Source of the DNA: a plasmid | Sequence record: CP113993.1 | Reading direction: 5' to 3' (one strand) | Length of the DNA: 64,000 bases | In this document: positions 10,497 through 36,607 of the stretch, in pieces | How the letters are laid out: every line of letters begins with the position of its first letter | How positions within the stretch are numbered: the stretch's first letter is position 1 | Position numbers and translations under genes: made by a program | The notes under the pieces: model-generated | The model's database searches: none | Told to the model about the DNA's origin: nothing | What the model saw: the letters and a program-made list of their open reading frames with translations, nothing else

Positions 10497-12599
10497 TTAA
10501 TCATGTATCGGCTTGGGGGGGGTGTTACGGATAGCAACTACCTCTCCTTTCCTGAAGTGAATAATACGATCTACCGGATAGGTTCGCTCATTTTTATGAC
10601 TAACAATTATTTTAGTGCATTCATAATTCATAATAACATCAAATACTTTCTTTTCAGAAAAAATATCGAGATTACTGTCAGCCTCATCAAGAATAAGTAT
10701 TTTAGGTTTTTTAAATAAAGCTCGTACTATAAGTAATTTTTGCTTTTCACCTCCAGATAAAAAATCACTCATATCACCAACTTGTGTAAAATATCCTAAA
10801 GGAAGTCTTGTTATTACATCATGAATGCCGATAGCATCCGCAATCTCATAAACCTGTTCAATATTGTCGAGATTGTCATTAAATGTAATATTCTCATATA
10901 TTGTACCAGGAAACAGGGAATCTCCCTGAAGAACTGATGATGTTATTTTCCTTATAGCATGCTTACCTGTTTTTTTAATATTAACACCTCCAATAAAAAG
11001 AGAACCAGCAACAGGTTCTGTTATCCCCAGCAGTATCTTTATAAACGTACTTTTGCCACTGCCTGAATCACCAGTAAGAAGTACCGTTTCATTCTCTGAA
11101 ATGTCAATATTGATATCTACCAAAACCAGAGGTGCCAGCTTATCGTACTGATGGTAAATACCTCTTGCTGACAAACTATAGTTCTCATTTAGCTCAAAGT
11201 ACGACGCTAAACTACTTTCGTCCGTGGCGTGAACGATTTCAGAAAGTCGTGAGGACTGTATTTTTAACAGCTGTATCTTATAAATAAGATTTATGACGAT
11301 AGTTGAACGTCTGGAGAATTCTACTGAATACGCCGTGAAGGCAAAAATCATACCAATTGTCATTTCATTATTAAGGGCCAATAAAACTGCCACAAACAGT
11401 ACCAGAATATTCCTGAAACCAGAAATGAACTGATTAATATTTGTTGCTATCATAGTTATGATTTGGCTTTTAGCACTAACGGAGGCTTCATCCGTTATAA
11501 TACCATGGTACTGGTTATGTATTCTGTGCAGCCCACCATAAAGTTTGTGAGTCTGAATAAATTTAAGTGTGTTAATAAGTACACTTTGCTCCCTGGATTT
11601 TAATGCAATTGTGCTCAGTTGATTTTGTTTTATGTAAAAATAAGCTGCAAATCTAACAACGGAGTATAATACACTTGCCATAATTACTATCGCTGCCAGT
11701 TCAACGTTATATGATAATAAAATAACTGCGATAATAATTGAGCTTGTTGCATTAAGAATTAGAGTAGATAACTTATCAGAAAGATAATTTTGGATTATGT
11801 CAATTGATTTAAATCTGTACATGATATTACCAAAACCACGAGATTTAAAGAAATCAACAGGTAATCTGGTTAGCTTTGAAAATACATTACTCCTCCAATT
11901 ACTTTTAAAATAAGCTTCAAACTTAATCTTGGTTAAATCACTCATAGTTGAAATAACAAATTGAAGGACCAGCAATGCTAATGAAACAAGAAAGCAAAAA
12001 ATCAGCAGATTTTTATCATGATCAGGAATAACTTTATCAAGTATTAATTGTGAAATACGCGGCATTAGCAATGCAATAATGTCAATCAAAATAGATGCGG
12101 CTAACATTTTAAAAATAAATGGAATAAAACCAATAACTTTGCCAGTAACATCACGTATGTTTATCTTCTTTGGCTTTACAGGGGAAAAACTTTCACTTTT
12201 CTTTATCTCAACAGCTACACCTGTAAAGTATTGTTTAAGTTTGTCTTGGTCAATTCTCATACACCCCAGTGCAGGATCATTTATTTCTACACTATTCTTA
12301 TTTATTTTTGTTAGTACAACAAAATGCGAAAAATTCCAGTGCAAAATACAGGGGAGTGTCAATTTTCTAAGTTCCTCAATAGTAAGGCTATATGCTATTG
12401 CACGAAAACCATGATCATTACATGTCTCCATAAGATAGCTGACTTTTGTTCCTCCTGTCTGGGCGGAGTGATTTTTTCTTAACTCTGGCAAAGAAATACC
12501 ATATCCATAGTAATTGAAAATCATTGCCAGGCAGGCCTGCCCACATTCACTGTCTTCACTTTGAAGAATGAGTTTCACTCTCTTTATAAACATGTCCAC
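10497..12599 (-). CDS. Peptidase-C39 domain ABC exporter (PCAT; CvaB/MchF-type bacteriocin/microcin exporter), 700 aa.
   Basis: N-terminal C39 motif ...SEDSECGQACLAMIFNYYG.... Six transmembrane-like segments. Walker A LLTGDSGSGKST, signature LSGGEKQKL, Walker B ILILDEADSNLD. The 700-aa size matches CvaB. Confidence 0.9.
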   Translation of the reverse strand: MDMFIKRVKLILQSEDSECGQACLAMIFNYYGYGISLPELRKNHSAQTGGTKVSYLMETCNDHGFRAIAYSLTIEELRKLTLPCILHWNFSHFVVLTKINKNSVEINDPALGCMRIDQDKLKQYFTGVAVEIKKSESFSPVKPKKINIRDVTGKVIGFIPFIFKMLAASILIDIIALLMPRISQLILDKVIPDHDKNLLIFCFLVSLALLVLQFVISTMSDLTKIKFEAYFKSNWRSNVFSKLTRLPVDFFKSRGFGNIMYRFKSIDIIQNYLSDKLSTLILNATSSIIIAVILLSYNVELAAIVIMASVLYSVVRFAAYFYIKQNQLSTIALKSREQSVLINTLKFIQTHKLYGGLHRIHNQYHGIITDEASVSAKSQIITMIATNINQFISGFRNILVLFVAVLLALNNEMTIGMIFAFTAYSVEFSRRSTIVINLIYKIQLLKIQSSRLSEIVHATDESSLASYFELNENYSLSARGIYHQYDKLAPLVLVDINIDISENETVLLTGDSGSGKSTFIKILLGITEPVAGSLFIGGVNIKKTGKHAIRKITSSVLQGDSLFPGTIYENITFNDNLDNIEQVYEIADAIGIHDVITRLPLGYFTQVGDMSDFLSGGEKQKLLIVRALFKKPKILILDEADSNLDIFSEKKVFDVIMNYECTKIIVSHKNERTYPVDRIIHFRKGEVVAIRNTPPKPIHD

Positions 12600-12601
12600 C
12601 T

Positions 12602-13891
12602 CTACTTATTATCCTTAAAAAACTTAATTAATGGCTCAAGTAACCAAGTTATAAGCATTTTTCTGTCAAGAAGGATGTCAGCATGCACATGACTTCCTGA
12701 TGGTATTAAGTATAAATGTTGAGCATATACTACATCATTGCTGTCTGGCTGAATGGTGATTCGGTACATGGGTGAGCTGTATTTAAGACCATAACTTGAC
12801 TCTATTACACTGGGGTCTATCGGATACCTGCCAATATCCTTAATAATCCCTTGATAAACACCATATTTCTGAAATGGATAGCTATCATATTTTAAGGTCA
12901 CTCTTCCTCCACAAGTAACATCGGCTATAGATGAGCTATCCAGAAAGAGGTAAACAACCATTTCTCGTGTGTCAGGTATAATTGTTAAGATTTTTTCATG
13001 TGGAGAAACACTATCGCCATTCGTTTTAGTCAGGCCGGATACATATCCCTCCACAGGGGAAGTAATTACGTAGTACTGACTGTCAGACTCTGCACTTATT
13101 TTCTGGTTTAAATCATAAATTTGTTTTTTATATTGAGTCTGAGTCTGATTATAATCATCATATATTTTTAACTTTTTATTCAAAAGCAATAATATACTTT
13201 GCTCCTCTTCATTAATATTTTTTTTATAGTTTTCAGCCTGAATGGCAAGGTTAAAGTGATTTCTTGCTATATTATTCACCTCCATATCAGAAACAGCCCC
13301 CCCTGGATGTAATTTAATTATTTTATCATAAAACGGTTTTTCACGACGGATTTCATTCTCTGTTAATAAAAGAGTTCTTTCCAAAATAACAAGAGACTCC
13401 CGCCTCTTATTAAGCTCTTTATCAAGAATTAAAAGTTGTTCTTTTGTTGATTTATACTTAGACGATAACTCCTTCTCCAGGGCTTTTTTCTCTTTATTAA
13501 GTAACCCGATACCAATCTCTGTATACTGAATCCCAGAACTGTCTTTCATTACAGAGTTAATTGAAAATAATGCCTGATCTTTGTGTACATAGTCACCGTG
13601 GTGTACGTTAAGATTACTGATAACGCCCCCAGAAGCGGCATTTACTGTGGCCACTCCTTTTAATGGTATCGTAACACCAGTGACACTTACTCTTTCGGTG
13701 TACTTTAGCGTCATCATTATAAAAATGATTAGCAAGCATATTATTGCACACACAACAAACGCTACATGTGTTGATGGAACAGAAACCGGAGATATCGATT
13801 GTTGTTTATTTTTATACGCAACCGCCTCTTCCCTAAAAATACCCTTATACACTTGTAAATTCCTCATCATACTTGTAGCTTTTTGTTTCAT
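12602..13891 (-). CDS. HlyD-family membrane fusion protein (CvaA/MchE-like accessory protein of the PCAT exporter), 429 aa.
   Basis: An N-terminal TM helix is followed by a long coiled-coil region (KEKKALEKELSSKYKSTKEQLLILDKELNKRRESL...) and a C-terminal beta domain. Its stop is 3 nt from the ABC gene start, so the two are translationally coupled. Confidence 0.85.
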   Translation of the reverse strand: MKQKATSMMRNLQVYKGIFREEAVAYKNKQQSISPVSVPSTHVAFVVCAIICLLIIFIMMTLKYTERVSVTGVTIPLKGVATVNAASGGVISNLNVHHGDYVHKDQALFSINSVMKDSSGIQYTEIGIGLLNKEKKALEKELSSKYKSTKEQLLILDKELNKRRESLVILERTLLLTENEIRREKPFYDKIIKLHPGGAVSDMEVNNIARNHFNLAIQAENYKKNINEEEQSILLLLNKKLKIYDDYNQTQTQYKKQIYDLNQKISAESDSQYYVITSPVEGYVSGLTKTNGDSVSPHEKILTIIPDTREMVVYLFLDSSSIADVTCGGRVTLKYDSYPFQKYGVYQGIIKDIGRYPIDPSVIESSYGLKYSSPMYRITIQPDSNDVVYAQHLYLIPSGSHVHADILLDRKMLITWLLEPLIKFFKDNK

Positions 13892-13974
13892 TTATACATT
13901 AAAAATAATTATGCATTCGAACTAAACGTTAAGCTATTTTAAAAGCTCAAATAGTACAAATGGAGTCGATATAT

Positions 13975-14535
13975 ATGAAAAAATTAACCTCAATGGAATT
14001 AGATTTAATTGCAGGATCTGGTATCGGTCTTGGTGAAGCACTGGAAGATGTTGCTGAAGCAATTATTGAAATTGCACATGGCGGAGATGGTGGCGTAGCT
14101 CTTGGAGAAGCCTTGGATCATGCTCCAGCTGAACATGTAACTCACTCAGGAGTCACACATGATAAAGACATTTTAAATATTGACATGATATCTGCGAATA
14201 TGGATATGCATGATATTCTTTTCCATCACGGCAATTCAGTGGGTTTGCAGAAAGATTTGAATGCCCTTACTTCAGATCAACGTGTTCATTATGATGTTCA
14301 TCTGGGAGGATATCTGGCTGGCCCAGGAACATTATTTCATGATGATGTCCAGATAAAAAGAGACCCTGAAGTTTTAAATATTGATACTTATTCTGCAAAC
14401 CTTGATCGCAGCGAAATTTTATCCGGACATGCAACACCATCTGATCAGACTGACATTAATCAACTGGTTCATGATCACAGAACTCATTATGATGTCAAGG
14501 AGGGTAAATTTGTTGCCGGGCCTGGAGAAAGATAA
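13975..14535 (+). CDS. Secreted protein with a double-glycine (class II microcin-type) leader, 186 aa. The mature part is His/Asp/Gly-rich and acidic, with an internal ~57-aa tandem duplication. It is a candidate novel PCAT cargo or bacteriocin.
   Basis: The leader MKKLTSMELDLIAGSG aligns position-by-position with the ColV leader MRTLTLNELDSVSGG. A GGAG Shine-Dalgarno lies 9 nt upstream of the ATG at 13975 (the ORF track starts 15 nt earlier at 13960). Internal repeats: DILNIDMISANMDMHDILFHHGNSVGLQKDLNALTSDQRVHYDVHLGGYLAGPG versus EVLNIDTYSANLDRSEILSGHATPSDQTDINQLVHDHRTHYDVKEGKFVAGPG. The gene is divergent from the MFP/ABC pair with a 68-bp gap at 13892-13959. Confidence 0.65.
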   Translation: MKKLTSMELDLIAGSGIGLGEALEDVAEAIIEIAHGGDGGVALGEALDHAPAEHVTHSGVTHDKDILNIDMISANMDMHDILFHHGNSVGLQKDLNALTSDQRVHYDVHLGGYLAGPGTLFHDDVQIKRDPEVLNIDTYSANLDRSEILSGHATPSDQTDINQLVHDHRTHYDVKEGKFVAGPGER

Positions 14536-14564
14536 TAGTCGTATAAAATAAAGTAGTTTTAGTT

Positions 14565-14597
14565 AAAACTGACATTCACGAATGTCAGTTTTTCTTC
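14565..14597 (+). terminator. Rho-independent terminator downstream of the double-glycine-leader protein gene.
   Basis: Perfect 12-bp stem aaaactgacatt / aatgtcagtttt with loop cacg, followed by tcttc. Confidence 0.6.
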
Positions 14598-14969
14598 ATA
14601 ACGTGTGCCTTCCCGGATGTGAAAATCATTATGCAGGCGAGTATAAAAGTATTTAAATACCATATAGATCATTAAACTTACAGTGAAAAATAATAAGGTG
14701 CGCCTCAGGTAAATAGAAAAAACTTTGCATGCAATGACAACCAGCCTTAATAAAATAGCCGCTTCTACTCTGACCATCTGATATACTTTTACTGGTGATA
14801 GCCACTGAATGTATACGTGACACCAACAATAAATACCGGTACATATTTACTCTGTACACTTTCAGAATCAGTATACGCTCTTTATGAAACCGAAAAATAT
14901 AACCGTAAAAGATATGAAAGAATTTTTACGGGACATAAGTCTCATAATTTATTTGTTAAAGGGCTCCTT

Positions 14970-15689
14970 TCAGATGACATTCTTCAGAGAAGAATCATCC
15001 GATAAGCTTATTGCTGTCCGTTGCAATTCATCACGCAGACAAATCCCTCTATATAATGCCACACGTGAGGGTGGCATATCCAACCCCTTCATGGCCTGCC
15101 TCCAGTACAGACTGACCGCATTTTCACTGAGCCGCCATTGTCTTGCAACAGAAGTACCGGAAAGACCTGTAGAGAGTAAAACTAACAGCGCATATTTTTC
15201 TATGGACACGCCAACAGGCAGCTGATGCCACATATACTGCTTTAGCGTCAACAACAGTTTCTCAGAACCAGCCGCTCCCACAGGAAATCGGCACGCTACG
15301 CTGTCCGTTTTCCTGAAGCGATACCATGCTTCAGGTTCACCACTCAAATGCTCTCCAGGCTGAATAAGTGGCGTAAGCCTATCCCGCTGTAGATAATCTG
15401 TCAGCCTGAAATATTGCATGACACACCGGTCTGTAAAATATAATCGATCCACTACAATCAGCACTTTCCGGCTCGTCAGCCAGGGCTGCAGATGATAAAA
15501 TAAAAAAACATGCTCATGGGGACGCAGACATAAAACCAGCCCAGCGTCAGGGTATCGGGATAAAAACACTATCAGCTCAGTAATATTACTGCACAGCGTG
15601 GTATCGATGCCAGTGTATCGGTTCTGGATTATGGCTATTACAGCCCTGCAGTCTGCCCAGAAATCGCCATAAATAATAATGTGTTTCAT
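14970..15689 (-). CDS. Regulator with an N-terminal receiver-like domain and a C-terminal LuxR/GerE-type HTH, 239 aa.
   Basis: C-terminus ...YALLVLLSTGLSGTSVARQWRLSENAVSLYWRQAMKGL... is LuxR-type HTH-like. N-terminus MKHIIIYGDFWADCRAVIAII... is CheY-fold-like. The gene overlaps the start of CaiF-like paralog 2 by 4 nt. Confidence 0.4.
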   Translation of the reverse strand: MKHIIIYGDFWADCRAVIAIIQNRYTGIDTTLCSNITELIVFLSRYPDAGLVLCLRPHEHVFLFYHLQPWLTSRKVLIVVDRLYFTDRCVMQYFRLTDYLQRDRLTPLIQPGEHLSGEPEAWYRFRKTDSVACRFPVGAAGSEKLLLTLKQYMWHQLPVGVSIEKYALLVLLSTGLSGTSVARQWRLSENAVSLYWRQAMKGLDMPPSRVALYRGICLRDELQRTAISLSDDSSLKNVI

Positions 15690-16111
15690 GCTTTCACCTT
15701 TCTGGATTTAACCGGCCATAGTTCCCTCAGCAATACCCTCTCCTCGTGCGATGCATTTCCAACCTGGTGCCGTCTGTTTCCTGCGATACGTACAAAAGAA
15801 CGGTATTTTTGTGAAGATGATTGCGGCAGGCGGACATTAATAATCCGAACCTCATAGCAGGTTGTCAGCGAACCTTCACTTCGGGTCTTACGGATTTCAC
15901 TATCAATAATATGCTTTTTATTCATAAGATATGACAGCTGAAACGAGGCCTTCCTGTCACTCAGTTTAAAAGCTCTGGCAATATCATTCCTGTTCACCCA
16001 TGTATTTCTGTGAAGACACCATAAAGCTACGATGATAAAAAATGGCCAGTTAGCATAGATCTCCATACCCTCCGGGAGATAACGTCCCTCGTGATTATTT
16101 TGTTTTGTCAT
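15686..16111 (-). CDS. CaiF/GrlA-like winged-helix transcriptional regulator (paralog 2), 141 aa.
   Basis: ...FFIIVALWCLHRNTWVNRNDIARAFKLSDRKASFQLSYLMNKKHIIDSEIRK... is a paralog of 6059-6496. Confidence 0.45.
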   Translation of the reverse strand: MTKQNNHEGRYLPEGMEIYANWPFFIIVALWCLHRNTWVNRNDIARAFKLSDRKASFQLSYLMNKKHIIDSEIRKTRSEGSLTTCYEVRIINVRLPQSSSQKYRSFVRIAGNRRHQVGNASHEERVLLRELWPVKSRKVKA

Positions 16112-22240: not shown

Positions 22241-22528
22241 ATGATAGTTATTAGCGAGCTAGATTGTTCATATATTAATGGTGCTGGTGGCGGGGTGAGC
22301 GAAGCTTTACATGGCGTAGCTCATGCTGTTGAAGGAGCCGCACATGTATATAATGCAGCAACTGGAGATAATGTAGGTGAAGGACTAGGTGGAAGGTGGG
22401 GGAGTGGAGGTGCAAGTGATTATTGTACAAAATATGCCACTCAAACAGATGATATGGATAAACAAATGTATGATAATTGTATGAAAAATCCTACTCGCTT
22501 TGGTTATAAAGATCCAGGTCCATGGTGA
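22241..22528 (+). CDS. Double-glycine-leader Gly/Ala-rich peptide precursor of 95 aa with two C-terminal Cys residues (class IIa microcin-like, MccV/MccL style). No exporter or immunity gene lies next to it.
   Basis: The leader MIVISELDCSYINGAGGG aligns with the leader of the 13975 protein (TSMELD-LIAGSG versus ISELDCSYINGAG). Both then continue G.G..EAL..VA.A....AH. The mature part is ...NAATGDNVGEGLGGRWGSGGASDYCTKYATQTDDMDKQMYDNCMKNP..., with two Cys that could form a disulfide as in MccV. An AAGGGA Shine-Dalgarno lies 7 nt upstream. The ORF track starts earlier, at TTG 22199. Confidence 0.55.
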   Translation: MIVISELDCSYINGAGGGVSEALHGVAHAVEGAAHVYNAATGDNVGEGLGGRWGSGGASDYCTKYATQTDDMDKQMYDNCMKNPTRFGYKDPGPW

Positions 22529-22602
22529 TAGTTTTAGGTTTATTATAGCCGAATGTGTTATTTAACAGTAACGGAAGCTTAAAAAGCCCGTTCAGCTGCG
22601 AT

Positions 22603-22640
22603 GCCAATTCATTTGTTTGAATTGGCATTTTTTATTCACA
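22603..22640 (+). terminator. Rho-independent terminator after the microcin-like gene.
   Basis: Stem gccaattca / tgaattggc with loop tttgtt, followed by attttttatt. Confidence 0.5.
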
Positions 22641-23229: not shown

Positions 23230-24279
23230 TTATTGATATGAGAATGTTATTGTTGATACAGCCTGTACGGTACCAGTCCGGATATCTCCTGTACGGATAT
23301 AATTAATTTTAAGGCTGGCCACAGGATTCAGTTCACCTCGGTATGAGGAAAATCGCCACTGATTTGTATTCCCTTTTACTGATGAATCAGGACCGAATCT
23401 TAAGGCTTCCGGGTTTCCGTCTTTGTATATCTTCAGACCAACTCCACTTGCTGTTGATGTTTTATCCAGCGAGAGCACCGGGCTCTGGTTTGCTGGCTCC
23501 GTTGCATCAGTCAGTGTCGCATAGACATCAATATTATCCTGACATTTTAACCGTAAATTAAGGTTTCCCCCGGTAATCTCTGAGCCAACTGAAGGAAACT
23601 GTTTTTTATAGACAGCAGCTAACTGAACGGTGTAGTTACTTTGTGAAAGGCTGCACGTTTTGGTTTTAACAAAGAAGTTAAAACCGTTCAGAATAATAAA
23701 CGACGTCCCCCCCAGACGGCTAACTCCACTGTTACTTGAAGTGACTGAAAAGTTTCCCACATGAACGGGGGGAACATTAACCCACCCGGGTGAAAGCCTG
23801 CCCAGTGCAATGATGCCAATCCTAATCGACGCCCCCATTCTCGGAACAAGATACCATCTGCCATTTGGAGGAATCACATCCATCAGGTTATTCCCCTTCA
23901 TCTTAACCCCTTCCCCGAATCCGCTTTCCTGACTGTCGGCTATGGTAAAAGTCACACCGATATTGGGAACGCCAATATCGTAAATGTCTTGTCCGTCATA
24001 CTGCCCAAGTACAGGGCGAGTTATTGTAGCCTGCCCCCTGAGATAATATGGCCAGCAGTAATCAAACAACACATTTTCACTGTAATAAGAACTTCTGCCA
24101 ATCTGTAATGGATAAGAAGAGGCATCAGCCGGCACGTCAAGATTATTGAACAGAATGTCCGGTCTTAAAATAAAATTTCTAGGGGTGTTATTACAGAAAC
24201 TGGCCGCTGCGACTTGCTTTGCCAGAAAAAGAAAAAAAAGCACAACAAAATAATGTGTTTTAACCTGTAAGTTCGTCAT
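23230..24279 (-). CDS. Fimbrial tip adhesin (two-domain, FimH-like position), 349 aa.
   Basis: It is the last gene of a chaperone-usher operon. It has a signal peptide (FLFLAKQVAAA) and a C-terminal pilin-like domain ending ...TITFSYQ. Confidence 0.55.
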   Translation of the reverse strand: MTNLQVKTHYFVVLFFLFLAKQVAAASFCNNTPRNFILRPDILFNNLDVPADASSYPLQIGRSSYYSENVLFDYCWPYYLRGQATITRPVLGQYDGQDIYDIGVPNIGVTFTIADSQESGFGEGVKMKGNNLMDVIPPNGRWYLVPRMGASIRIGIIALGRLSPGWVNVPPVHVGNFSVTSSNSGVSRLGGTSFIILNGFNFFVKTKTCSLSQSNYTVQLAAVYKKQFPSVGSEITGGNLNLRLKCQDNIDVYATLTDATEPANQSPVLSLDKTSTASGVGLKIYKDGNPEALRFGPDSSVKGNTNQWRFSSYRGELNPVASLKINYIRTGDIRTGTVQAVSTITFSYQ

Positions 24280-24435
24280 AATCGTCCTCTCTGTTTTTTC
24301 AGTTACGCTGTCGACTGATAATCATTTAGATACTTTTCATCTCAGCGCTCATCATTTTATTGCCCGGTACTCAAGTTTTTGTTACTGTTCAGGAAAATAT
24401 ATTAGGGCCACGTATTATTTAGGAATGTTAATAAT

Positions 24436-27018
24436 TTAGTGTCCCGAATACACTGTATGCTGTTTCTGAACAATAGTAGCATTTCTCTTTTCCGGTCTTA
24501 TACAGCGCACGGGTTGTATGGTAGCTACAGGATTATTCGCCTGATGTTTTGCAACAATGTGGTAAGAAAAGGTACAGTTATCGGTAATATAGCTTCCCCA
24601 TACTACCTTTATATTTCCTTTATCCTTCAGCCCACGGGCAAAAAGTCTTCCTCCCTGAACAACATACCCAACGGATTTCCCCTGAGTATCAAAAGCTTCC
24701 GATGCCATAGGAGGAGTACTTCCGTCTGACATTCGTATATCAAACAACACAGCTTCACCTGACTGCGTGGTGAAATTCACCAGCGTCGCACTGTTTGCCC
24801 GCGGAATAATTTCCTGTTCTGTCGCTGACAGCTCAACATTCAGCGGCAACGCTTCGGGATCGATACTGACCGCATTTTTTTCATAAGGTGTGACGGATGG
24901 CACAATACCGTTACCCCAACGATCAATACGGTTTCCTGGAGAATTATTAATCGTTGCCCCACGGGCACCTTCTGCATGAATAATCGCGAATGTATCACTC
25001 AGTTCGTTACTCAGGGTAAGCCCAAATGGATGGACCACCACAGCACCGGATACACCAAACGAAGACTGGCGATGATTGAGACTGTCATTACCAGCAGTTG
25101 CGGTTAAATAAGCATAAGGCGAACGGTAACCGGCACTGGCTGAATATCCGGTACCACCTTTTTCCATCGTGCTGGCAGAAAGGCCATATGAAAACTGATT
25201 GTCTTCCCCGGTGACACCACTGACCGAGGTTTGCAAACTGTTCCCGTCTCCTCTGCTGTAATTCAGCGTAGTGGATAACAGCGAACTCTGAGGGCTTTCG
25301 CCCAGTGGAACGGAGAAATTCGCATAAATACGACGATCATCGCGCAACTTGTCCGTGTCAAATGACCGGGAATAACCCACCTGATAGTTCAAACGCCGGT
25401 ATACGTTACTGTACCCTGCCTGATATTCGCTACGGGTCCCTTTGCGAGTCCAGTAGCTGTACGTTGTTCCCGTCAGGTAAAGATTACCCCAACCAGTTCC
25501 CAGCTCCTGGTTAACGGAAATCTGAAACTGATTTCTGGGACGCCAGAGCATTATATTTCCGGTCTGACTGTTCCCGGAATAATCTCCCCGGCTGGTCCAC
25601 ATGGCATCACGCAGATTATAGAAATCTTTCGACATATACCGGTAGGCAGCCAGTGTCAAACTGGTACTTATTGATGGCACCATAACACTGTAACTGGTGT
25701 GCAAGCTGTATCCTTTCCGTGTAATGTCATCACCGGGTAATATTGTCCTGGAAAATGTTACGTCAGTGGCTATAGCACCCAGTGGAGTATTAAATGCCAC
25801 ACCGGCCAGGCTGGCAGCATAACGGGGCGCTGTCGTCAGCCCGGTATTTACCGTAACATCATTCACTAACCCGTACTGCAGGGTCCCCTGAAAAACGATA
25901 TCATCCAAGGTATTGTCTGCATAACGGTATCGACCGGATGATATCTGATACCGGATATACCCGGGCCGGACAAGTTGCGCCACAGAAGCAAACGGGACGG
26001 TGAACAGGCGAGTCTGTCCATCTGCTTCTGTAATGATAACCGTCAGGTCTCCCCCATATCCGGAAGGATAGAGATCGCTGACAGTAAATGGCCCTGCCGG
26101 AACGGTTGTTTCATAAATGATATTACCATTCTGTCTGATGGTTACTTTTGCATTACTACTGGCTACCCCATGCACTACCGGCGCATAGCCTCTCAGGGAA
26201 CCCGGTAACATCCTGTCATCAGATGCCAGTTTCATGCCACGGAGGCTAATGTTCTCCATCAGCTCCCCTCCGGTACTGAAGTCCCCCGCCGTCAGCTGCC
26301 CTCTCAGTGCGGCCACATCATGCTGGATACTGGTTTCTGTACTTCGGTAACCACCGGCGGACCAGTTTCCCCTGTGCCGTAACGCAAATCCTTCTACATT
26401 CAGCCCTGCACGGATCCCCAAGTAAGTCTTATCTTCCTGTGTACCGGCTACCCGGTAACGGTAATTATTCAGGTTATAGTTAACAAACGCGGCAGGTACA
26501 CCCGTCTGCCACTGTGCCGGTGAAATATATCCTCGGGGACGGTGGATGAGCAGCGCCTGTGGGAGGTCGATATTCAGACGCAGTTCCGATGGTATAAACC
26601 GTGTTCTGGCTGCCGGTAAGGCAGAAGAAATATCAGTACAACCACTAATTTTTCTCATTACTTCTTTTTTTAGCACTTCTTCGTTCAAGTCCAGTAATGA
26701 TAACAGCTCAGGTGTCAGGCAAAGTACGGTCCGGTCCATGTCAACTGATGCCTGAAAATACAATACCGTTCTTCCTTTCCATTCTCCGTTAAGCCAGATA
26801 TCAGAATAGTATTCACCTGCCGGAACCGGCTCTCCATGACTGAATTTTTTCACATCAATGACACTTTCTCCGGGAATATGTTGTAAAAATGCCGGATTAA
26901 ATTCAGCGTCTGTTGCCGCCTGTATGTTACGGGCCATCAGGCCAAACAATATACTGAAATATAATAGTAGCGATGACCTGCCTGCCATTGTCCTTTGTGC
27001 CTGGCATTTCTTTTTCAC
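24436..27018 (-). CDS. Fimbrial outer-membrane usher (FimD/PapC family), 860 aa.
   Basis: Its size and sequence are typical of ushers, and it sits between the chaperone and adhesin genes. Confidence 0.85.
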   Translation of the reverse strand: MKKKCQAQRTMAGRSSLLLYFSILFGLMARNIQAATDAEFNPAFLQHIPGESVIDVKKFSHGEPVPAGEYYSDIWLNGEWKGRTVLYFQASVDMDRTVLCLTPELLSLLDLNEEVLKKEVMRKISGCTDISSALPAARTRFIPSELRLNIDLPQALLIHRPRGYISPAQWQTGVPAAFVNYNLNNYRYRVAGTQEDKTYLGIRAGLNVEGFALRHRGNWSAGGYRSTETSIQHDVAALRGQLTAGDFSTGGELMENISLRGMKLASDDRMLPGSLRGYAPVVHGVASSNAKVTIRQNGNIIYETTVPAGPFTVSDLYPSGYGGDLTVIITEADGQTRLFTVPFASVAQLVRPGYIRYQISSGRYRYADNTLDDIVFQGTLQYGLVNDVTVNTGLTTAPRYAASLAGVAFNTPLGAIATDVTFSRTILPGDDITRKGYSLHTSYSVMVPSISTSLTLAAYRYMSKDFYNLRDAMWTSRGDYSGNSQTGNIMLWRPRNQFQISVNQELGTGWGNLYLTGTTYSYWTRKGTRSEYQAGYSNVYRRLNYQVGYSRSFDTDKLRDDRRIYANFSVPLGESPQSSLLSTTLNYSRGDGNSLQTSVSGVTGEDNQFSYGLSASTMEKGGTGYSASAGYRSPYAYLTATAGNDSLNHRQSSFGVSGAVVVHPFGLTLSNELSDTFAIIHAEGARGATINNSPGNRIDRWGNGIVPSVTPYEKNAVSIDPEALPLNVELSATEQEIIPRANSATLVNFTTQSGEAVLFDIRMSDGSTPPMASEAFDTQGKSVGYVVQGGRLFARGLKDKGNIKVVWGSYITDNCTFSYHIVAKHQANNPVATIQPVRCIRPEKRNATIVQKQHTVYSGH

Positions 27019-27028
27019 TGTTCACCCT

Positions 27029-27760
27029 TTACTGAATTGATGACCTGCCTTCTTCATCACCACCATAATCATTAATGACAGTCCAGATGACACTGCTGCC
27101 CTGGGCATTTTTTCCCGGTGAGACAAATTCTTTGAAGGAATATGGTGAGACCATACCTGGATGACTGAATGACAACATATCCTGCCCGGTCTTCAGCAAA
27201 ATTTTTCGGTATGTAATGAAATAGGGCGTCTGGTTGTCGGCCCTGAGAAGAATCCGACCCTCTTTGTGTATCAGTGACCATTTGACCTGCCTGCGTGCAT
27301 CAGCCGGAGACTGACTTAATGTATCAGGCCGAAAAAAAAGCTTAATTCGGCTGCGGACAGCAAGCTGAAGATAATTTATATGACCGCCATCGGTTTCACT
27401 TTCTTCAGTTTCGGGTCTGGAAGGGATATCGAGTACATTCAGATAAAACACCGACTCCCTGTCCCGGGGGAGGGGTTCCCCGGTATACATAATCCTTAAA
27501 GTTTGCCCTGTGCCCGCCTCCACTCTGGAAACCGGGGGAGTGATAATAAAAGGAACTTTGACAGAATCAGGGGGACTGTATGCATTACCGGTATCAAGCC
27601 ATGCCTGAACTAACGACGGTGAGTTTTCTCCATTATGGAGCTGAACATTAATACTTTTTTTCTGCTCAGGATATATCACCCGTGTCCCCATAATAACAAC
27701 GCTGGCACTGGCAGAAAAAGATATCAATGCTGATATAATAAAAAGTATCAATCCGGGCAT
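27029..27760 (-). CDS. Periplasmic fimbrial chaperone (PapD/FimC family).
   Basis: From the internal start, MPGLILFIISALISFSASASVVIMGTRVIYPEQKKSINVQLHN... matches the PapD-like chaperone N-terminal motif. Confidence 0.8.
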   Translation of the reverse strand: MPGLILFIISALISFSASASVVIMGTRVIYPEQKKSINVQLHNGENSPSLVQAWLDTGNAYSPPDSVKVPFIITPPVSRVEAGTGQTLRIMYTGEPLPRDRESVFYLNVLDIPSRPETEESETDGGHINYLQLAVRSRIKLFFRPDTLSQSPADARRQVKWSLIHKEGRILLRADNQTPYFITYRKILLKTGQDMLSFSHPGMVSPYSFKEFVSPGKNAQGSSVIWTVINDYGGDEEGRSSIQ

Positions 27761-27812
27761 GATAACCTCGGTTAAGGCAAAAAACAGATCTCTGCATGAC
27801 GCACATAAATAA

Positions 27813-28349
27813 TTATTCGTATGCAATCGTGTAGTTCACAGTAGCAGCAACATCTCCGGCTGTTGCTGCCCCTGTTGCATAGTATCTCGCGTTGTAGCGC
27901 AACTTGATATCTGAAGTGTCAATTCGGGTCGCAACGGTATTCTGAGAGGCCACATCCTTACCCAATACAACAGGAGTGCTTCCATCCGCATTTAATAACT
28001 GGACCTGCACATTTTTTGCAGTACCGGTATTCGTCAGATTCCCGGTATTAAAATCTGTCGTGGCGTTTGGTTCAAAATAAGCTTTAACATTTTGGCCACC
28101 GGAAGAAGCCCCGGCATCACATCCATTTAGCTCAATAATAAACGGCGTTAATGCTGCAGTCTTGGCAGTAGTGTCCAGTAATGCTTTTGAAACCGCAGGT
28201 AATGTCACGGTCATATTTTTACTACCGGTAGTGACTGAGCAGGTCTGGTCCAGTATTTTACCCACAAAGTTAATTGTACCATCATAGGCCTGAACTCCGC
28301 CTGAAAACGCAAGGGACAGCATACCAGTTGCGACAAAAATATTTTTCAT
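27813..28349 (-). CDS. Major fimbrial subunit (FimA-like pilin), ~178 aa.
   Basis: MKNIFVATGMLSLAFSGGVQAYDGTINFVGKILDQTCSV... with a C-terminal ...NYTIAYE beta-strand motif. Confidence 0.8.
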   Translation of the reverse strand: MKNIFVATGMLSLAFSGGVQAYDGTINFVGKILDQTCSVTTGSKNMTVTLPAVSKALLDTTAKTAALTPFIIELNGCDAGASSGGQNVKAYFEPNATTDFNTGNLTNTGTAKNVQVQLLNADGSTPVVLGKDVASQNTVATRIDTSDIKLRYNARYYATGAATAGDVAATVNYTIAYE

Positions 28350-29511
28350 ACACCAGCTCCTCAATAACAGAATTAAGCAATGATGACATCATTATTGAAA
28401 TAAAATAGATAAGACCTTTATAAACAACCAGGAGTTATCTGACAGAAAGTATTATTGACTGCAACATAAAATTCAACGTGTTTATATCATTTGATTACCA
28501 TTTTATCAATAGACATAAGCTATCAATTATAACAATTCGATCGCCAGTATCGATTTCCTTCTATTGCCAATTTACTGCCATCCAACATTAAAAACCAATT
28601 AAAACAATACGTTAATCACTTAAACAATAAAAGACTAACTCAATAAAACACCGGTTTGACCGTGCTATAAACACTATTTTTAAACTGAGATCACCCACAT
28701 GAAAATAATAACTATGTTTATTTTATCAGACTCAACAGATCTTAAGTGATGGTACAAAAGTGGATTGTTATATAAGACAAACATGAAGAAGTTAAACTGA
28801 CAACCAGTCTGTCCTGCCTGATGTATCAAGGGTTGTATTGCGGAGTAATATATACTCTGTAAGGTGTAACCGTGACTCACTGAAAAATAATCCCACATAA
28901 TTATCATTAAATATAATTTATATTTTTAGGATTTATCTGTTAATCTCAGCAATGAAAGTCGTGTAAATTGTGCACTATTGCACCAGTAACTATTGGACTG
29001 GAATTATCGTTAATACATAAAAATAGCTTGATAACTTATCGGTGTAGTATAGGAGGTCGTTGGCGGAGAAGTCACTCAGAATTTAACTTATACCACCTGC
29101 TTTATTCACAGTAAACGGGACCTTTTTATCCCAGGATATCGCTGATGCGCTCAAGGTCACCATGCCCGGATATAAAAAATCAATCCAAGACAGAAAAAAG
29201 AAGACGAAGATCTGATAACGATGTAATTCTGGAAGCCACGATAGTATCAGGAAAAATAATTCATACAGAAAGTACTCTTATTCAGCAAATGAAAAATCGG
29301 GAAAAGGGAATCGTTTATCTGAAATTGCCACAGTGATATGAACCGTATGTCCGGAGAACGCTGAAAGTTAATAAAAATGTGACATACTGGTACTATGAAG
29401 AAGTTTGGCTTCATTACACGGTAGATGTAAATATTATTTTTTTATACATCTACTCAGGGGAGGATGTCTTTGACTCCATGGTCTGCTGTGCAAATGAAAT
29501 CACGGACACTT

Positions 29512-30347
29512 TATCTATTTGCGCGTAAGACCTCGCCCAATCGGGCGGGAACATAAGCGCGGTAACTGCGTAACATTTTTTTGACCTTCGTCAATAGAGC
29601 TTATATTTTTCAGCGTATTTTTTAAGCTCTGTGAAACGCGCCTGTAAATATCGGTTCTATCCAACACCCGTTCAGGTTGAGCTTTTGGCTCAAACGTTCG
29701 GGTGCGTGCGTTTTGTCTATAACAGCATTTTGCGCTGGCGCACTGACGCGTACTATAAGCGCCAGGAGAAAATCGGCTATACGCAAGCCAGCGCACGATT
29801 AACAGCGCTGAAAAAGGAGCCAGAATTTGCCTGGCTCAACGATGTTTCCAGCGTGCCGCTACAGCAGGCCCTGCGCCATCAACAGGCCGGATTCTCAAAC
29901 TTTTTCGCCGGACGGGCCAGATACCCGACATTCAAAAGCAAACGGTCATACACAGGCCGCTACGCTCACCGGTGCCGCGTTTAAATACCGCGATAGCAGG
30001 TTGTACATGGTAAAGAGCAAAGCGCCTTTAGACGTGCGCTGGAGCCGCCCGCTGCCGTCCGTGCCGTCTACCGTCACCGTGTCCAGAGATGCCGCCGGGC
30101 GGTACTTTGTTTCGTGCCTTTGCGGGGTTAAAAGATTTGTTCGTCACCGATACCGGATTCAGGTCCGGCTATCCCCGCCATACCGCTAAATACGCGGCTC
30201 GCCTGGCGCCACTCCAGCGCCGGTTAAGCAAAAAGGCTAAAGGCTCAAAGAACCGCGCCAGAGCCCGCTTAAAGGTGGCCCGGCTCCACGCGAAAATTGC
30301 CGATTGCCGCCAGGATGCCCTGCACAAGGCCACCCGCGAACTTGTCG
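29512..30347 (+). mobile_element. tnpB: IS200/IS605-family tnpB-only element remnant (copy 2), 3'-truncated. The tnpB is frameshifted at 29631-30347.
   Basis: MKRACKYRFYPTPVQVELLAQTFGCVRFVYNSIL...; ...LKDLFVTDTGFRSGYPRHTAKYAARLAPLQRRLSKKAKGSKNRARARLKVARLHAKIADCRQDALHKATRELV, where similarity stops. The left-end region 29512-29630 is homologous to 17690-17808. Confidence 0.6.
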
Positions 30348-31085
30348 TTCGGCCACCGGCGTCATGGCCGCAATCGTGGCACGTGAGTAACCCGCTTTCA
30401 GAAGTACCGTCCGGGTCAGCAATTGTTCTCTCGAACCAGTCGCGGGCGTTGCGGGCCCGGGCCAGCATACAGCACTGTACCGATCGCGCGCCGGCCAGCA
30501 AATCGCCGGGAAAACTGGCATCAAAACTGGCGTTATAGATGATGACATCCTGGTCCTGTACCGCAGTCCTGATCCGCGACGCCGGTTCATCCGGCGTGAA
30601 TTTATCACGTACCATCGCCGGCGTGATGCCGTGGGCAACCTGTGCCGCCGGCCTGGCTTTGAAAGTGTCAGGCGGACAAATCAGGGTATTCGGGAGGGGC
30701 ACGCCAGTATCACTGATGATGGCAGTCTCCGGCAGGGCATCCGATGCCGGACTGAGACAGGTGGATTCAGTATCCGGACAGACGCGCGACCGTGTCATGA
30801 CGTCGTGTTCTCCCTGTCCGTGCGCAGTCGCCAGACCGCCCCGCCGAACTCTGTTCCCCCGACGGTCTGTGTACAGGTTTCATCACAGACCGGCCACTTC
30901 TGTACCACCGCAAAATCCATATGACAGAGTGGGGTATCCCCGGGTTCACCGGGTGTTTCCAGCACAAGCCCGTCCGGAACGATCGGAGAGGACGTACCTG
31001 CCAGTCTGGCGGAGCGGCGCCAGAAACTCCGGATACAGCCTCCCTGCCTGAGTACGCAGAGAAGCACCTGCTCGCTGACACGCAT
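30348..31085 (-). pseudogene. DEDD-family 3'-5' exonuclease (DnaQ-like) gene, frameshifted and 3'-truncated at the junction with the tnpB remnant.
   Basis: The Exo II-like motif ...VIIYNASFDASFPG... and an N-terminal ...LVLETPGEPGDTP... segment lie in two frames. Meaningful sequence stops near 30400. Confidence 0.4.
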
Positions 31086-31086
31086 G

Positions 31087-31612
<526 letters not shown>

Positions 31613-32039
31613 GATAAGCCCTCATTAACATACCTATAATATGCCTATCAGTATAGATGAAAGACACACCTTGGTGATAGCCAGAAAAAGCATACCATTA
31701 ATTCGCCATAAGTTTTTTAATACGATTTTCCCTGCCGTGATGTTTTCTTATTGCGATAATTATCAGCCTGATAACACAGACAGTAAATTACCGGACGGCT
31801 GTTTTCGGGTGATCCGACTTTTTGCTTATTCGCGAATTTCCGGAAGTGTACTACGGACAGGGAATAAGAGAAGCGGTCTTTCTGGCCCCTGCACGCCGGA
31901 TCACGAATAAGGTATCAGACACTACATACAGAATGGCGGTCCGACTGATGGGGGCATATGTTGTGGTGAGAGGGCGCCGGGCGGAATTGCAGGGTTCGAA
32001 GATCCGTATAGCTTTTTTCGGATCTCAGCGGAAAAGAGA

Positions 32040-32165
32040 GAACTATGTATAGGTGTGAGATATCCATATGCCCAACATCTGCATATGCGTGGCATACGCA
32101 TATCCTCACCATCTGCATATGCTGCATATATACATATGCTGAACATCTGCCTATACTGAACAGAT
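32040..32165. promoter_or_regulatory. Cluster of GCATATGC-type palindromes and ATCTGCATATGC direct repeats just upstream of vapB. Likely an operator or autoregulatory region, less likely iteron-like.
   Basis: acatctgcatatgc (32086), ccatctgcatatgc (32119) and acatctgcctatac (32148), plus the palindrome atgcgtggcatacgcat at ~32090-32107. Confidence 0.35.
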
Positions 32166-32235
32166 GCACACACCCGGTGCAATGAACATCATTCCGGATA
32201 TGCATCACATATCCACACTTACCCGGGAGAGAATC

Positions 32236-32466
32236 ATGAGAACCGTATCTATTTTTAAAAACGGCAACAACCGCGCCATCCGCCTTCCCCGCGATCTGGA
32301 TTTTGATGGAGTGAGCGAGCTGGAAATCGTCCGGGAAGGGGACAGCATCATCCTGCGCCCTGTCCGGCCGACCTGGGGCTCGTTCGCGCAGCTCGAAAAA
32401 GCTGACCCGGGCTTTATGGCGGAGCGTGAGGACGTTGTCAGCGACGAAGGACGATTTAACCTGTGA
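32236..32466 (+). CDS. vapB: VapB antitoxin (AbrB/SpoVT-type), 76 aa.
   Basis: MRTVSIFKNGNNRAIRLPRDLDFDGVSELEIVREGDSIILRPV.... Confidence 0.85.
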   Translation: MRTVSIFKNGNNRAIRLPRDLDFDGVSELEIVREGDSIILRPVRPTWGSFAQLEKADPGFMAEREDVVSDEGRFNL

Positions 32467-32879
32467 AGAAAATGTATATGCTCGACACGAACATCTGCTC
32501 GTTCATCATGCGCGAGCAGCCCGAAGCGGTGCTGAAGCGCCTGGAGCAGGCGGTGCTGCGCGGCCACCGTATTGTGGTCTCGGCCATCACCTACTCAGAG
32601 ATGCGCTTCGGCGCCACCGGCCCGAAGGCCTCGCCGCGTCACATTGAACTGGTTGACGCGTTCTGCGCCCGCCTCGATGCTATCCTGCCCTGGGACCGGG
32701 CCGCGGTGAACGCCACCACGGAGATTAAGGTGGCGCTACGCCTCGCCGGGACGCCGATCGGCCCGAACGACACGGCGATCGCCGGGCACGCTATTGCCGC
32801 CGGCGCGGTACTGGTGACAAATAATACGCGGGAGTTTGAGCGGGTGCCGGGTCTTGTTCTGGAAGACTGGGGAAGATAA
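32463..32879 (+). CDS. vapC: VapC PIN-domain toxin.
   Basis: ...MLDTNICSFIMREQPEAVLKRLEQ...VVSAITYSEMRFG...LVTNNTREFERVPGLVLEDW is the PIN signature. Its start overlaps the vapB stop. Confidence 0.85.
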   Translation: MKKMYMLDTNICSFIMREQPEAVLKRLEQAVLRGHRIVVSAITYSEMRFGATGPKASPRHIELVDAFCARLDAILPWDRAAVNATTEIKVALRLAGTPIGPNDTAIAGHAIAAGAVLVTNNTREFERVPGLVLEDWGR

Positions 32880-33448
32880 CGCTGTAAAACAAAATGTGCG
32901 GAGGCGTTTCCGCTCACGGCCTCCCGGTATGAGACTGACGTCGGCGACGCGCTGGACGCTCTGCTGGCACGCGCTAGATTCAACGCCGCCCAGGCACAGG
33001 AGCTGCGGTGGCACCGCATACGCTGGCCGCTGACGGGTGATGAAGAATTTGAGCAGCGCTACGGGAAATCTTGATTAAACGCATCCGTGAAAAAAGGAAT
33101 ACTGAAAATGGCCAGAATTCAGTGCAACCGTGATCGGGGCAATAATTCATTCGACGGGGTGATTTGTCTGGCCCGGGGAAAATCGTTAACTGTGTACTAC
33201 ATGTTGCTTTTCGTTTTAAAAAACTTATATACAGCGAATGTTATTCAGAACGAAAGTACTTTCTCCAGCCGCAACCTGCTCATCTGGTATTCCTCATCTG
33301 TTACACTCCCCGCTTACAGTCTGTCCAGACCGTATCGTATAGTTCCGGGAGGAGCTCCTTCTCAGCCAAATTAAAGCCACACGGTCAGGATTATACCCAG
33401 AAGCCCGTTAATCGTGCTGCCCACAGGGGGACGTATTTTTATCCGCAC

Positions 33449-34297
33449 TCATGACGTCGTTGTCCGGCTGAAGCGGTAAAACCGGTCTGGCTCACTGACT
33501 ATCCACAGCGAATTCCGGCCATCAGAAGCTATCCCTTCCGCCTGCGGAATGTCCCGCTCCAGACCACTGTGTCCCCGGCGCAGCGGCATCACCCTCCTGC
33601 CGCCCTCCGGGTCTGACACCAGCACCAGGGCTGATTCATGGGAAAGCACATACAGCCGCCTGTTTATCCTGTCGTAATGCAGACCGGAGATATCCTTCAG
33701 GAACCACGGCAGGGACAACCGGTGCGTCAGTGAATCACTGACCGACAGAGAGTCATGGCTGTGGTCCGTTTCTAAAAAACGAAGCGGTTTCTTTTCCTGC
33801 GCCACCATCAGGGCATTCTCTCCCCGTCCACGGGCAAGGCCTTCAAAACCGGCATTGTCGCTTTTTCTGTCCACATCCAGGGTCAGGGTGTATGACGCCG
33901 GCGGCAGGACAGACGTATTCCTGTCAATGTGGTGGGTGGTGAGTATCCGCTCCCGTTCCCGGGACAGGACATAGCGGTTCCGGCCGAGATACTCAATGGC
34001 CTCAAAATCATGGTCGCCATCCGATGGTATCACCCGCAGCACGTTCCCGTCCGTGTCCAGCTCCACCACCGACGACGGATGGTCGGTCACGGCAAACAGC
34101 GTTCCGCTGTCCGGGTTCCACGTCAGGCCGGAGAGACCGCCCTGTATACCGGGAATGTCTTTTTCTGTCGCAAGCTGCCACTGCGTTTCCTCCGGGTACC
34201 AGGTTTCCGGAAAATACAGTGTGGCCGCACCGGCCACCATCAGAAGAGCGCCAGCCAGCAGTGCCGGTTTTTGTTTAAGTAAACGTCTCAGAGTCAT
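33449..34297 (-). CDS. SdiA-regulated / YjiK-family periplasmic beta-propeller protein, 282 aa.
   Basis: A signal peptide is followed by repeated ...SGLTWNPDSGTLFAVTD... and ...IEYLGRNRYVLSRER... motifs typical of the YjiK/SrgE family. Assigned from memory. Confidence 0.45.
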   Translation of the reverse strand: MTLRRLLKQKPALLAGALLMVAGAATLYFPETWYPEETQWQLATEKDIPGIQGGLSGLTWNPDSGTLFAVTDHPSSVVELDTDGNVLRVIPSDGDHDFEAIEYLGRNRYVLSRERERILTTHHIDRNTSVLPPASYTLTLDVDRKSDNAGFEGLARGRGENALMVAQEKKPLRFLETDHSHDSLSVSDSLTHRLSLPWFLKDISGLHYDRINRRLYVLSHESALVLVSDPEGGRRVMPLRRGHSGLERDIPQAEGIASDGRNSLWIVSEPDRFYRFSRTTTS

Positions 34298-36580: not shown

Positions 36581-36607
36581 TGTGTTCTTCCTCTCCCTGC
36601 CCGTTCT

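Follow-up and report, generated by a model that had tools for sequence, protein, structure and literature searches.

A microcin-type export module on the pESI plasmid of Salmonella Infantis is paired with an unusually large, predicted double-glycine-leader protein

What does a microcin-type exporter carry when the gene beside it encodes a protein much larger than the known class II microcins? This question is raised by a three-gene secretion module at positions 10497-14535 of a 64,000-nucleotide stretch of sequence record CP113993.1 (the window), which belongs to a pESI-type megaplasmid of Salmonella enterica serovar Infantis. The module consists of a peptidase-containing ATP-binding cassette transporter (PCAT), an HlyD-type adaptor or membrane fusion protein (MFP), and a divergently oriented gene for a 186-residue protein, the cargo. 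Multidrug-resistant Salmonella Infantis has spread worldwide in poultry and people, and pESI is the plasmid responsible. The 4.3-kb module region is 100% identical to that of pN55391 and matched 109 Salmonella plasmids, 105 of them at 99% identity or higher. In RefSeq the transporter is a "peptidase domain-containing ABC transporter" and the adaptor an "HlyD family efflux transporter periplasmic adaptor subunit", yet the cargo, near-invariant in 105 of 109 copies of an epidemic plasmid, is annotated only as a "hypothetical protein". An initial annotation, made from the sequence alone, had proposed that the cargo may be a metal-binding or RTX-like toxin or scavenger rather than a pore-forming microcin. 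Here we present evidence that the export machinery and the leader are of the known class II microcin type, that the module is a self-contained and horizontally mobile type I secretion module, and that what is new is the cargo.

Known type I secretion cargos are either smaller than 10 kDa, with an N-terminal double-glycine leader, or larger than 50 kDa, with a C-terminal signal. Class II microcins have a mature size of about 10 kDa or less, precursors of 75-120 residues in the verified cases and, in every verified case, an adjacent immunity gene; their listed site of action is the inner membrane. Both large microcin screens discarded proteins of more than 150 residues, and the cargo was therefore invisible to them. 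No description of the cargo was found in the literature: its sequence strings and RefSeq accessions were absent from the papers and text supplements searched, and the pESI papers checked mention only unrelated bacteriocins.

The PCAT gene (10497-12599, minus strand) encodes 700 residues, or 698 residues from position 12593 in the RefSeq version. The protein contains QSEDSECGQACLAMI and is recognized by the Pfam models Peptidase_C39 (E = 1.9e-36, profile positions 2-132 of 133), ABC_membrane (1.5e-29, residues 164-426) and ABC_tran (3e-26, residues 495-640). In an alignment with CvaB from the colicin V (ColV/MccV) system, residues Q14, C19, H92 and D108 coincide with its catalytic residues, and the ATPase motifs are intact, with Walker A (GDSGSGKS) at residue 510, the signature LSGG at 614 and Walker B (ILILDE) at 634. 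The full domains, aligned catalytic residues and intact nucleotide-binding motifs therefore indicate a genuine PCAT, unlike the exporters of RTX toxins, whose C39-like domain is inactive. The adjoining MFP gene (12602-13891, minus strand) encodes 429 residues, or 416 from position 13852 in RefSeq, and its translation shows a hydrophobic N-terminal anchor. The MFP matches HlyD_3 (1.8e-13; 51.6 bits, cut-off 22.2), HlyD_D23 and Biotin_lipoyl_2 (31 bits, cut-off 29.8). Its score against TIGR01843, 106.6 bits, falls under the cut-off of 208.65, and the protein is thus a divergent member of the HlyD family. The original reading of the pair as an HlyD-like MFP with an exporter bearing the C39 cysteine motif is borne out. 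Identity to CvaB is 32% for the PCAT and to CvaA 20% for the MFP, and the term "CvaAB-type" is, on these values, a description of architecture and not of close kinship.

The cargo gene (13975-14535, plus strand; WP_023994119) begins MKKLTSMELDLIAGSG. Its start at 13975 is supported by a Shine-Dalgarno sequence, GGAG, at 13962-13965, 9 nt before the ATG and within the AT-rich divergent intergenic region (13892-13974). The gene is divergent to the exporter genes, as first described, and is separated from the start of the MFP open reading frame (ORF) at 13891 by 83 bp; the 68 bp originally given was counted from an upstream in-frame ATG at 13960. The first 15 codons (13975-14019, plus strand) encode MKKLTSMELDLIAGS, a predicted double-glycine-type leader. 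PCAT substrates are defined in the literature by the pattern Leu(-12)-X3-Glu(-8)-Leu(-7), with position -4 hydrophobic, Gly at -2 and Gly, Ala or Ser at -1, and residues L4, E8, L9, I12, G14 and S15 of the cargo occupy the canonical positions -12, -8, -7, -4, -2 and -1. The leader also matches the published Motif 2 (M-[KEQI]-x-[IL]-x9-G-[GAS]) of microcin signals, and the Salmonella and Klebsiella relatives of the cargo match Motif 1, a pattern built on the full set of ten verified class II microcins. Read from a real cvaC locus, the ColV leader is MRTLTLNELDSVSGG|ASGR and is identical to the cargo leader at 7 of 15 positions in the same register. Both the double-glycine leader and its resemblance to the ColV-type class II leader, claimed in the initial annotation, are upheld by these comparisons.

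The same annotation had placed processing at GSG. The combination of a leader with an intact C39 exporter stands; the cut, on the register Leu(-12)/Glu(-8)/Leu(-7)/Ile(-4)/Gly(-2), most likely falls after residue 15 (G14-S15|G16), one residue before the end of GSG, and not after G16. Among 24 family members, L4, E/D8, I/V12, G14 and G16 are invariant, and residue 15 is Cys in 11, Gly in 7, Ala in 3, and Ser, Tyr or Asn in one each. Residue 9, at position -7, is Cys in 19 of the 24, and Cys at either -7 or -1 is unusual for double-glycine leaders. A second near-invariant motif, E-G-[GA], follows His35 at residues 35-40 (about 14077-14094) and recalls the double signal sequence of MccPDI; a second cleavage there is speculative, as the residues upstream of the motif do not fit the canonical leader pattern.

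We estimate a probability of roughly 85% that the PCAT binds this leader, cleaves it and exports the mature cargo. The C39 domain would dock the 15-residue leader through L(-12), E(-8), L(-7), I(-4) and G(-2) and would cut after residue 15, at G14-S15|G16, and the PCAT, the HlyD-type adaptor and the chromosomal TolC of the host would then move a 171-residue, 18.4 kDa protein out of the cell in one step. No outer-membrane component is encoded in any locus examined, and we infer the use of chromosomal TolC by analogy with CvaAB.

The linkage of the cargo to its exporter extends well beyond pESI. A search of 5.8 billion proteins, together with an exhaustive hidden Markov model (HMM) scan of 1.84 billion representatives, yielded 28 clusters of cargo relatives, all unnamed and all from Enterobacterales (Salmonella, E. 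coli, Klebsiella and Yersinia); by these searches the cargo defines a new family restricted to that order. Its members are 186-193 residues long except for one of 206 residues and five partial sequences. No relative of the cargo, or of the small leader-peptide family described below, was present in the species-representative genomes of GTDB, and a megablast search with the module against complete E. coli genomes gave no match, although E. coli relatives do exist at the protein level. A 2,318-residue protein (P0007) with nine matching stretches was rejected as a homologue; it is an MBG_2 repeat protein whose score adds up weak hairpin-like matches.

In 11 of 11 lineages the cargo gene adjoins MFP and PCAT genes (intact in eight) or their remnants (in three), so the co-occurrence with PCAT exporters foreseen at the outset is what is found. 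The genes are divergent in the Salmonella clade and co-directional elsewhere, and four lineages (Yersinia, two of E. coli and one of S. enterica) have a tight cargo-MFP-PCAT operon with a cargo-MFP gap of 38-50 bp. Identity to the window proteins at four loci (L002, L007, L012 and L019) is 69, 68, 32 and 31% for the cargo, 43, 42, 27 and 26% for the MFP, and 54, 56, 35 and 34% for the PCAT. The trees of the three proteins agree, indicating that cargo, MFP and PCAT have evolved as a unit. With synonymous sites saturated, dN/dS of the cargo is about 0.1 or less; the cargo is thus a real and strongly constrained gene. Decay of the exporter beside an intact cargo gene was seen repeatedly (loci L005-L006, L008-L011, L013, L016-L018 and L028-L029): MFP remnants only in lineage S4, a PCAT reduced to a 138-residue C39 fragment in K3, a PCAT split into 200 and 519 residues in one E. 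coli lineage, an IS1 insertion in the MFP gene of a Klebsiella plasmid, and MFP frameshifts. The Klebsiella loci sit among cloacin- or colicin-type toxin and immunity genes, and K88-type, Afa and other chaperone-usher fimbriae, a SPATE, two-partner secretion genes and a large autotransporter recur as neighbours of the module.

The predicted mature cargo has 171 residues, a mass of 18,445 Da, an isoelectric point (pI) of 4.8 and no hydrophobic segment. Three parts can be distinguished, a conserved N-terminal stretch (GxGLGEAL...AH-x-EGG-x-LAEAL) and two units of about 59 residues. The first part, GIGLGEALEDVAEAIIEIAHGGDGGVALGEALDHA (residues 16-50; 14020-14124, plus strand), is common to the small microcin-like family. 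Repeat 1 (residues 60-118; 14152-14328, plus strand) reads VTHDK...HYDVHLGGYLAGPG and repeat 2 (residues 126-184; 14350-14526, plus strand) reads QIKRD...HYDVKEGKFVAGPG. The duplication scores 132 in a local self-alignment against 27 +/- 5 for shuffled sequences, and 27 of 59 residues are identical between the copies. A duplication with both copies ending in AGPG had been noted before; its core is about 59 residues and its period 66-67 residues (201 nt), in place of the 57 residues first estimated. At the DNA level only short stretches still match (71% over 35 nt at a spacing of 201 nt), which indicates that the duplication is old. It stands out in the Salmonella clade (z = 18-25) and is hardly visible in the other members (z = 0.4-5). 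Two AlphaFold2 runs, the first on an alignment of 5 sequences and the second on one of 14, reached mean predicted local distance difference test (pLDDT) values of 34.5 and 39.4, and both modelled each repeat unit, at low confidence, as helix-helix-beta-hairpin. Net charge across the family ranges from -6 to -20, and the mature part is nearly devoid of Cys. No match to the cargo was found in Pfam, NCBIfam, PHROGs, PADLOC or a PDB profile search.

The source of the N-terminal stretch is suggested by a second gene. A strict leader pattern, scanned over all Met starts in the window, matched twice, at the cargo and at an ORF at 22241-22528 (plus strand) encoding 95 residues. This precursor reads MIVISELDCSYINGA|GGGVSEALHGVAHAVEGAAH..., and its 80-residue mature part, which begins GGGVSEALHG, is Gly-rich, has two Cys and in sequence resembles a class IIa microcin. 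A Shine-Dalgarno sequence, GGGA, lies 7 nt upstream, and the TTG start at 22199 that gives the RefSeq version 109 residues is probably wrong. A strong hairpin terminator with a 12-bp stem followed by UUUUUUAUU is located at 22600-22629 (plus strand; RNA fold z = -3.2). The small gene occurs in 125 Salmonella plasmids, and its exact sequence was found in 4,809 blocks of the assembly collection. In lineage S4 a copy of 92% identity lies 4.9 kb from the large cargo gene, and remoter relatives are carried by other Salmonella plasmids (CP024166 and CP053407). On CP053407 the small-family gene directly follows an MFP and a CvaB-like PCAT gene and is itself followed by small hydrophobic ORFs with predicted transmembrane segments, an arrangement that by gene order and sequence corresponds to the classic class IIa microcin layout. 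These small ORFs look like immunity candidates, and CP053407, a record that bears no annotation, carries a further 85-residue double-glycine-leader peptide (...QFVSGA|GAAEDG...); both observations refer to locus L038 (1248-1505, minus strand, and 6365-6689, plus strand). Apparent fusions of the small protein to a C39 domain within its 90% cluster were dismissed as a clustering artefact, the proteins being N-terminal fragments of PCATs.

Alignment of the large and small families with hhalign gave a probability of 95.1% (E = 3e-8) over columns 1-50, and BLASTP gave 35% identity over 49 residues. An N-terminal profile of the large family scored the small ORF at 18.8 bits versus 8.3 bits for CvaC. 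From the aligned columns and the profile scores, the homology continues beyond the leader for about 35 residues. It thus seems that the large cargo combines a microcin-type module at its N terminus with a C-terminal part that is different and far larger. Combined with the structure models, this describes the cargo as a microcin-type front end, comprising the leader and a helical module of about 35 residues rich in Gly, Ala and Glu, followed by what are modelled as two diverged helix-helix-hairpin units of about 60 residues. It is possible that the small protein is a second substrate of the same exporter.

Set against characterized systems, the module is closest in design to ColV/MccV (CvaA, CvaB, CvaC and Cvi, with TolC). 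Both are plasmid-borne, combine a PCAT of the active C39 type with an HlyD-type adaptor, carry a 15-residue leader in the same register and lack an outer-membrane gene in the locus. They differ in the mature cargo, which is acidic, non-hydrophobic and 171 residues long here and Gly-rich and 88 residues long in MccV; in gene order, the cargo here being upstream of or divergent to the exporter genes; and in immunity, since cvi overlaps cvaC whereas no cvi-like gene abuts the cargo. The largest verified class IIa microcins, MccPDI and MccS, likewise carry double-glycine leaders, mark the upper end of the class II size range and leave through a PCAT and MFP, but their precursors are about 120 residues, compared with 186 here, they have dedicated immunity proteins, and no sequence relationship is detectable. 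The small leader-peptide family, which is unannotated and confined to Salmonella plasmids, shares the leader and the first 35 or so mature residues (GxGLGEAL...VExAxH) and is co-resident with the large cargo in two lineages. Its mature part of 80-82 residues is Gly-rich, has two conserved Cys and ends GYKDxGPW, whereas the large family has about 135 residues of duplicated acidic domain in the C-terminal position. RTX proteins of the HlyA type are also acidic, Asp-rich and exported by an ABC transporter with an MFP and TolC. They differ in having a C-terminal uncleaved signal, GGxGxD repeats and an inactive or absent C39 domain; the cargo has a predicted N-terminal cleavable leader and no GGxGxD repeats, and its exporter has an active-type C39 domain, so that the suggestion of an RTX-like protein is not sustained.

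Whether the cargo can be called a microcin turns largely on its size and on immunity. At 18.4 kDa the mature protein is, as had been remarked, much larger than known class II microcins, and the cargo has roughly double the size of any microcin known. No immunity gene had been evident near it, and none is conserved across the 12 locus types compared in an all-against-all search of ORFs of at least 30-35 residues within about 2.5 kb of the module; besides the module genes, the shared items were only insertion sequence (IS) elements, integrases and lineage-specific neighbours. The cargo is therefore not filed as a class II microcin on account of its size and the lack of adjacent immunity, dedicated PCAT and MFP genes being present. 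The homology of the N-terminal 50 or so residues to a small microcin-like family places the protein nearer to microcins than the initial wording, "rather than a microcin", would imply. An unannotated 72-residue ORF (14559-14777, minus strand) beyond the cargo gene has two hydrophobic segments (maximum Kyte-Doolittle 19-residue window 2.18). Gene finders call it in other assemblies and RefSeq does not; it has no homologue in any other lineage examined, lacks a clear Shine-Dalgarno sequence, and its 3' end reads through the terminator hairpin of the cargo gene. It is a weak candidate for an immunity gene and possibly spurious. Hydrophobic mini-ORFs near the module in other loci were rejected as immunity genes, being lineage-specific and in AT-rich DNA, and a zinc-ribbon-like 70-residue ORF (CxxC...CxxC; L002-L004, for example L002 1863-2075, convergent to the PCAT gene) was likewise rejected as a fourth component because it is lineage-specific. 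In pESI no immunity-like ORF follows or adjoins the small leader-peptide gene.

What, then, might the exported protein do? We lean, at slightly less than even odds, toward the view that the cargo is a bacteriocin-like protein used for competition outside the producing cell. Activity and target recognition would be split between the shared N-terminal module and the large C-terminal domain, on the pattern of modular microcins and colicins, without a dedicated immunity gene being retained. We rank this reading first because of the kinship to microcins, the nature of the characterized enterobacterial PCAT cargos, which to our knowledge are all microcins, the colicin-type neighbourhood in Klebsiella, and a precedent for immunity-free double-glycine bacteriocins. 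That precedent is the bacteroidetocins, which carry a double-glycine motif and have no immunity genes; they are small peptides from another phylum and are likened to the cargo by description alone. Several observations weigh against export of the cargo as a microcin-like toxin. In the MccV system secretion drops sharply at a cargo of 116 residues, so that export of 171 residues is a prediction only and would require this exporter lineage to cope with a larger substrate. At the predicted -1 position 13 of 24 members have a non-canonical Cys, Tyr or Asn, which implies either a tolerance of the exporter lineage for unusual residues there or a cut after G16. Curated double-glycine-leader HMMs (TIGR01847-type and Bacteriocin_IIc), proposed at the start as a check, gave no match, with no Pfam or NCBIfam family at E <= 1; such models are short and mostly based on Gram-positive or specific families, and stray leader-level matches to the MccV and Mersacidin models appeared in 2 of 14 members (best E 0.2 and 0.013). 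The AlphaFold2 runs, with pLDDT of 34 and 39, provided no usable structure of the cargo. The whole family is acidic (pI 4.35-5.7) with a maximum 19-residue hydropathy of 1.12 or less, unlike class II microcins acting at the inner membrane. Nothing besides the cargo, MFP and PCAT is conserved within about 2.5 kb in the 12 locus types, and gaps of 38-50 bp leave no room for an immunity gene in the tight operons. Finally, the cargo is conserved more than its own exporter, the opposite of the usual arms-race pattern of bacteriocins.

Part of this evidence favours an alternative in which the exported cargo is non-bactericidal, an extracellular colonization, matrix, adhesion-modulating or host-directed factor that has recruited a microcin-type exporter. 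We consider this possible, at odds clearly short of even, and rank it second on the strength of the missing immunity gene, which no lineage has, the hydrophilic and acidic composition, the conservation of the cargo above the exporter under strong purifying selection, and the repeated adhesin and virulence neighbourhoods of the module. PCAT cargos with roles beyond killing are also documented: RaxX with RaxABC in Xanthomonas, EbfG in Synechococcus and the self-assembling, biofilm-promoting microcins of A. baumannii are reported to be double-glycine-leader proteins exported by PCAT-type systems, although all are under 10 kDa and unrelated in sequence. The homology of the N-terminal module to a microcin-like family speaks against this alternative, the neighbour associations carry no correction for a background rate, and plasmids tend to gather accessory genes in any case; moreover, the cargo shows no positive sequence or structural sign of any specific non-toxic function. 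We regard as improbable a third proposal, that the mature cargo is mainly a secreted binder of divalent metal (a scavenger or buffer of Zn, Ni, Cu or Ca). The pESI protein does have 15 His (8.8%) and 30 Asp plus Glu (17.5%) in 171 residues, and the motifs HGGDGG, FHHG, HYDVH and HDHRTHYDV on which the idea was built are all present in an acidic protein. High His counts, 13-17, are found in all four members of the Salmonella clade and, separately, in P0030, but the rest of the family has 4-9. Across 24 members only H35 and H171 are invariant and H84 nearly so, and there are no His tracts, known metal motif, Pfam or PDB match or RTX-type Ca motif. Metal binding therefore does not hold as a defining trait and would at best be a clade-specific property of the Salmonella members, layered on another function. 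P0030 (L026), with 16 His, is a Salmonella member of an otherwise His-poor clade, and this separate case suggests a host-linked, convergent enrichment.

We give equally little credence to the idea that the pESI locus is a decaying or silent relic, the large cargo being too large for export or its AT-rich DNA silenced by H-NS, and the real or former substrate being the 22241-22528 protein. The exporter has decayed in several lineages with the cargo gene intact, the GC content of the module is low (31-35% in most lineages versus 48% for the window), a consensus scan of the cargo upstream region found no sigma-70-like promoter, and the size limit of the MccV system applies here as well. In pESI, however, all three genes are intact within a region that 105 of 109 plasmids share at 99% identity or more, the large cargo and not the small peptide heads the exporter operon in most lineages, and the cargo is under strong purifying selection. 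Silent decay in pESI is thus unlikely.

The sequence around the module offers some indications of its expression and history. The cargo gene is followed by a hairpin terminator at 14565-14592, with a 12-bp stem that includes A-U pairs and a U-rich tract after it (predicted RNA fold with a centroid energy of -12.4 kcal/mol and z = -2.8 relative to shuffled sequences), and accordingly forms its own transcription unit. No upstream motif common to the two leader-peptide genes was detected (score 17, with shuffled sequences averaging 20). Convergent on the cargo gene is an operon for a 239-residue protein and a CaiF/GrlA-family regulator (14970-15689 and 15686-16111, both minus strand). The 239-residue protein is 27% identical to an SprB-like activator of plasmid CP024166, on which the same regulator pair stands directly 3' of the small-family leader-peptide gene; for this reason the pair may regulate double-glycine-leader genes. 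A second CaiF/GrlA copy (71% identical; 6059-6496, minus strand) and a remnant of the 239-residue gene (about 5877-6059, minus strand) are found upstream, near a NusG paralogue. Positions 1-16111 form an island with an autotransporter, the NusG paralogue, CaiF/GrlA, PCAT, MFP, cargo, the 239-residue gene and the second CaiF/GrlA. This island of about 16 kb, with a near-identical cargo copy, also occurs in Salmonella chromosomes beside phage-like genes (for example CP020492 at 1.93 Mb; L031-L036), which indicates that it is not plasmid backbone. Directly beyond the PCAT gene lies a transposase-like ORF (9491-10123, plus strand). Within this ORF or IS remnant an Rfam match to the small RNA STnc290 (10051-10120, minus strand) was discounted as sub-threshold (29.4 bits against a gathering score of 60). 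The GC content is 34-36% in the secretion module and 54-65% in a block at 30000-42000, and the window is a mosaic of segments of differing origin. A chaperone-usher fimbrial operon (23230-28364, minus strand), with genes for a 349-residue fimbrial protein, an 860-residue usher and a chaperone, comes directly after the small leader-peptide gene, and in 5 of 11 lineages fimbrial operons lie near the module, at distances of up to about 7 kb.

A cargo of 18 kDa with an N-terminal leader falls between the two known size groups of type I secretion substrates. If it proves antibacterial, microcin-like toxins would gain a larger, modular class without immunity genes; otherwise the module would be a rare enterobacterial PCAT system that secretes something other than a bacteriocin. 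Either outcome would widen the known cargo range of PCAT exporters. We think it unlikely, though worth stating, that a microcin-type PCAT and MFP have been repurposed for a non-bactericidal, immunity-free effector of about 19 kDa, one that would retain a microcin-derived N-terminal module, act on the host, the biofilm matrix or metal availability and, on pESI, add to the fitness of Salmonella Infantis in the gut and to its epidemic success.

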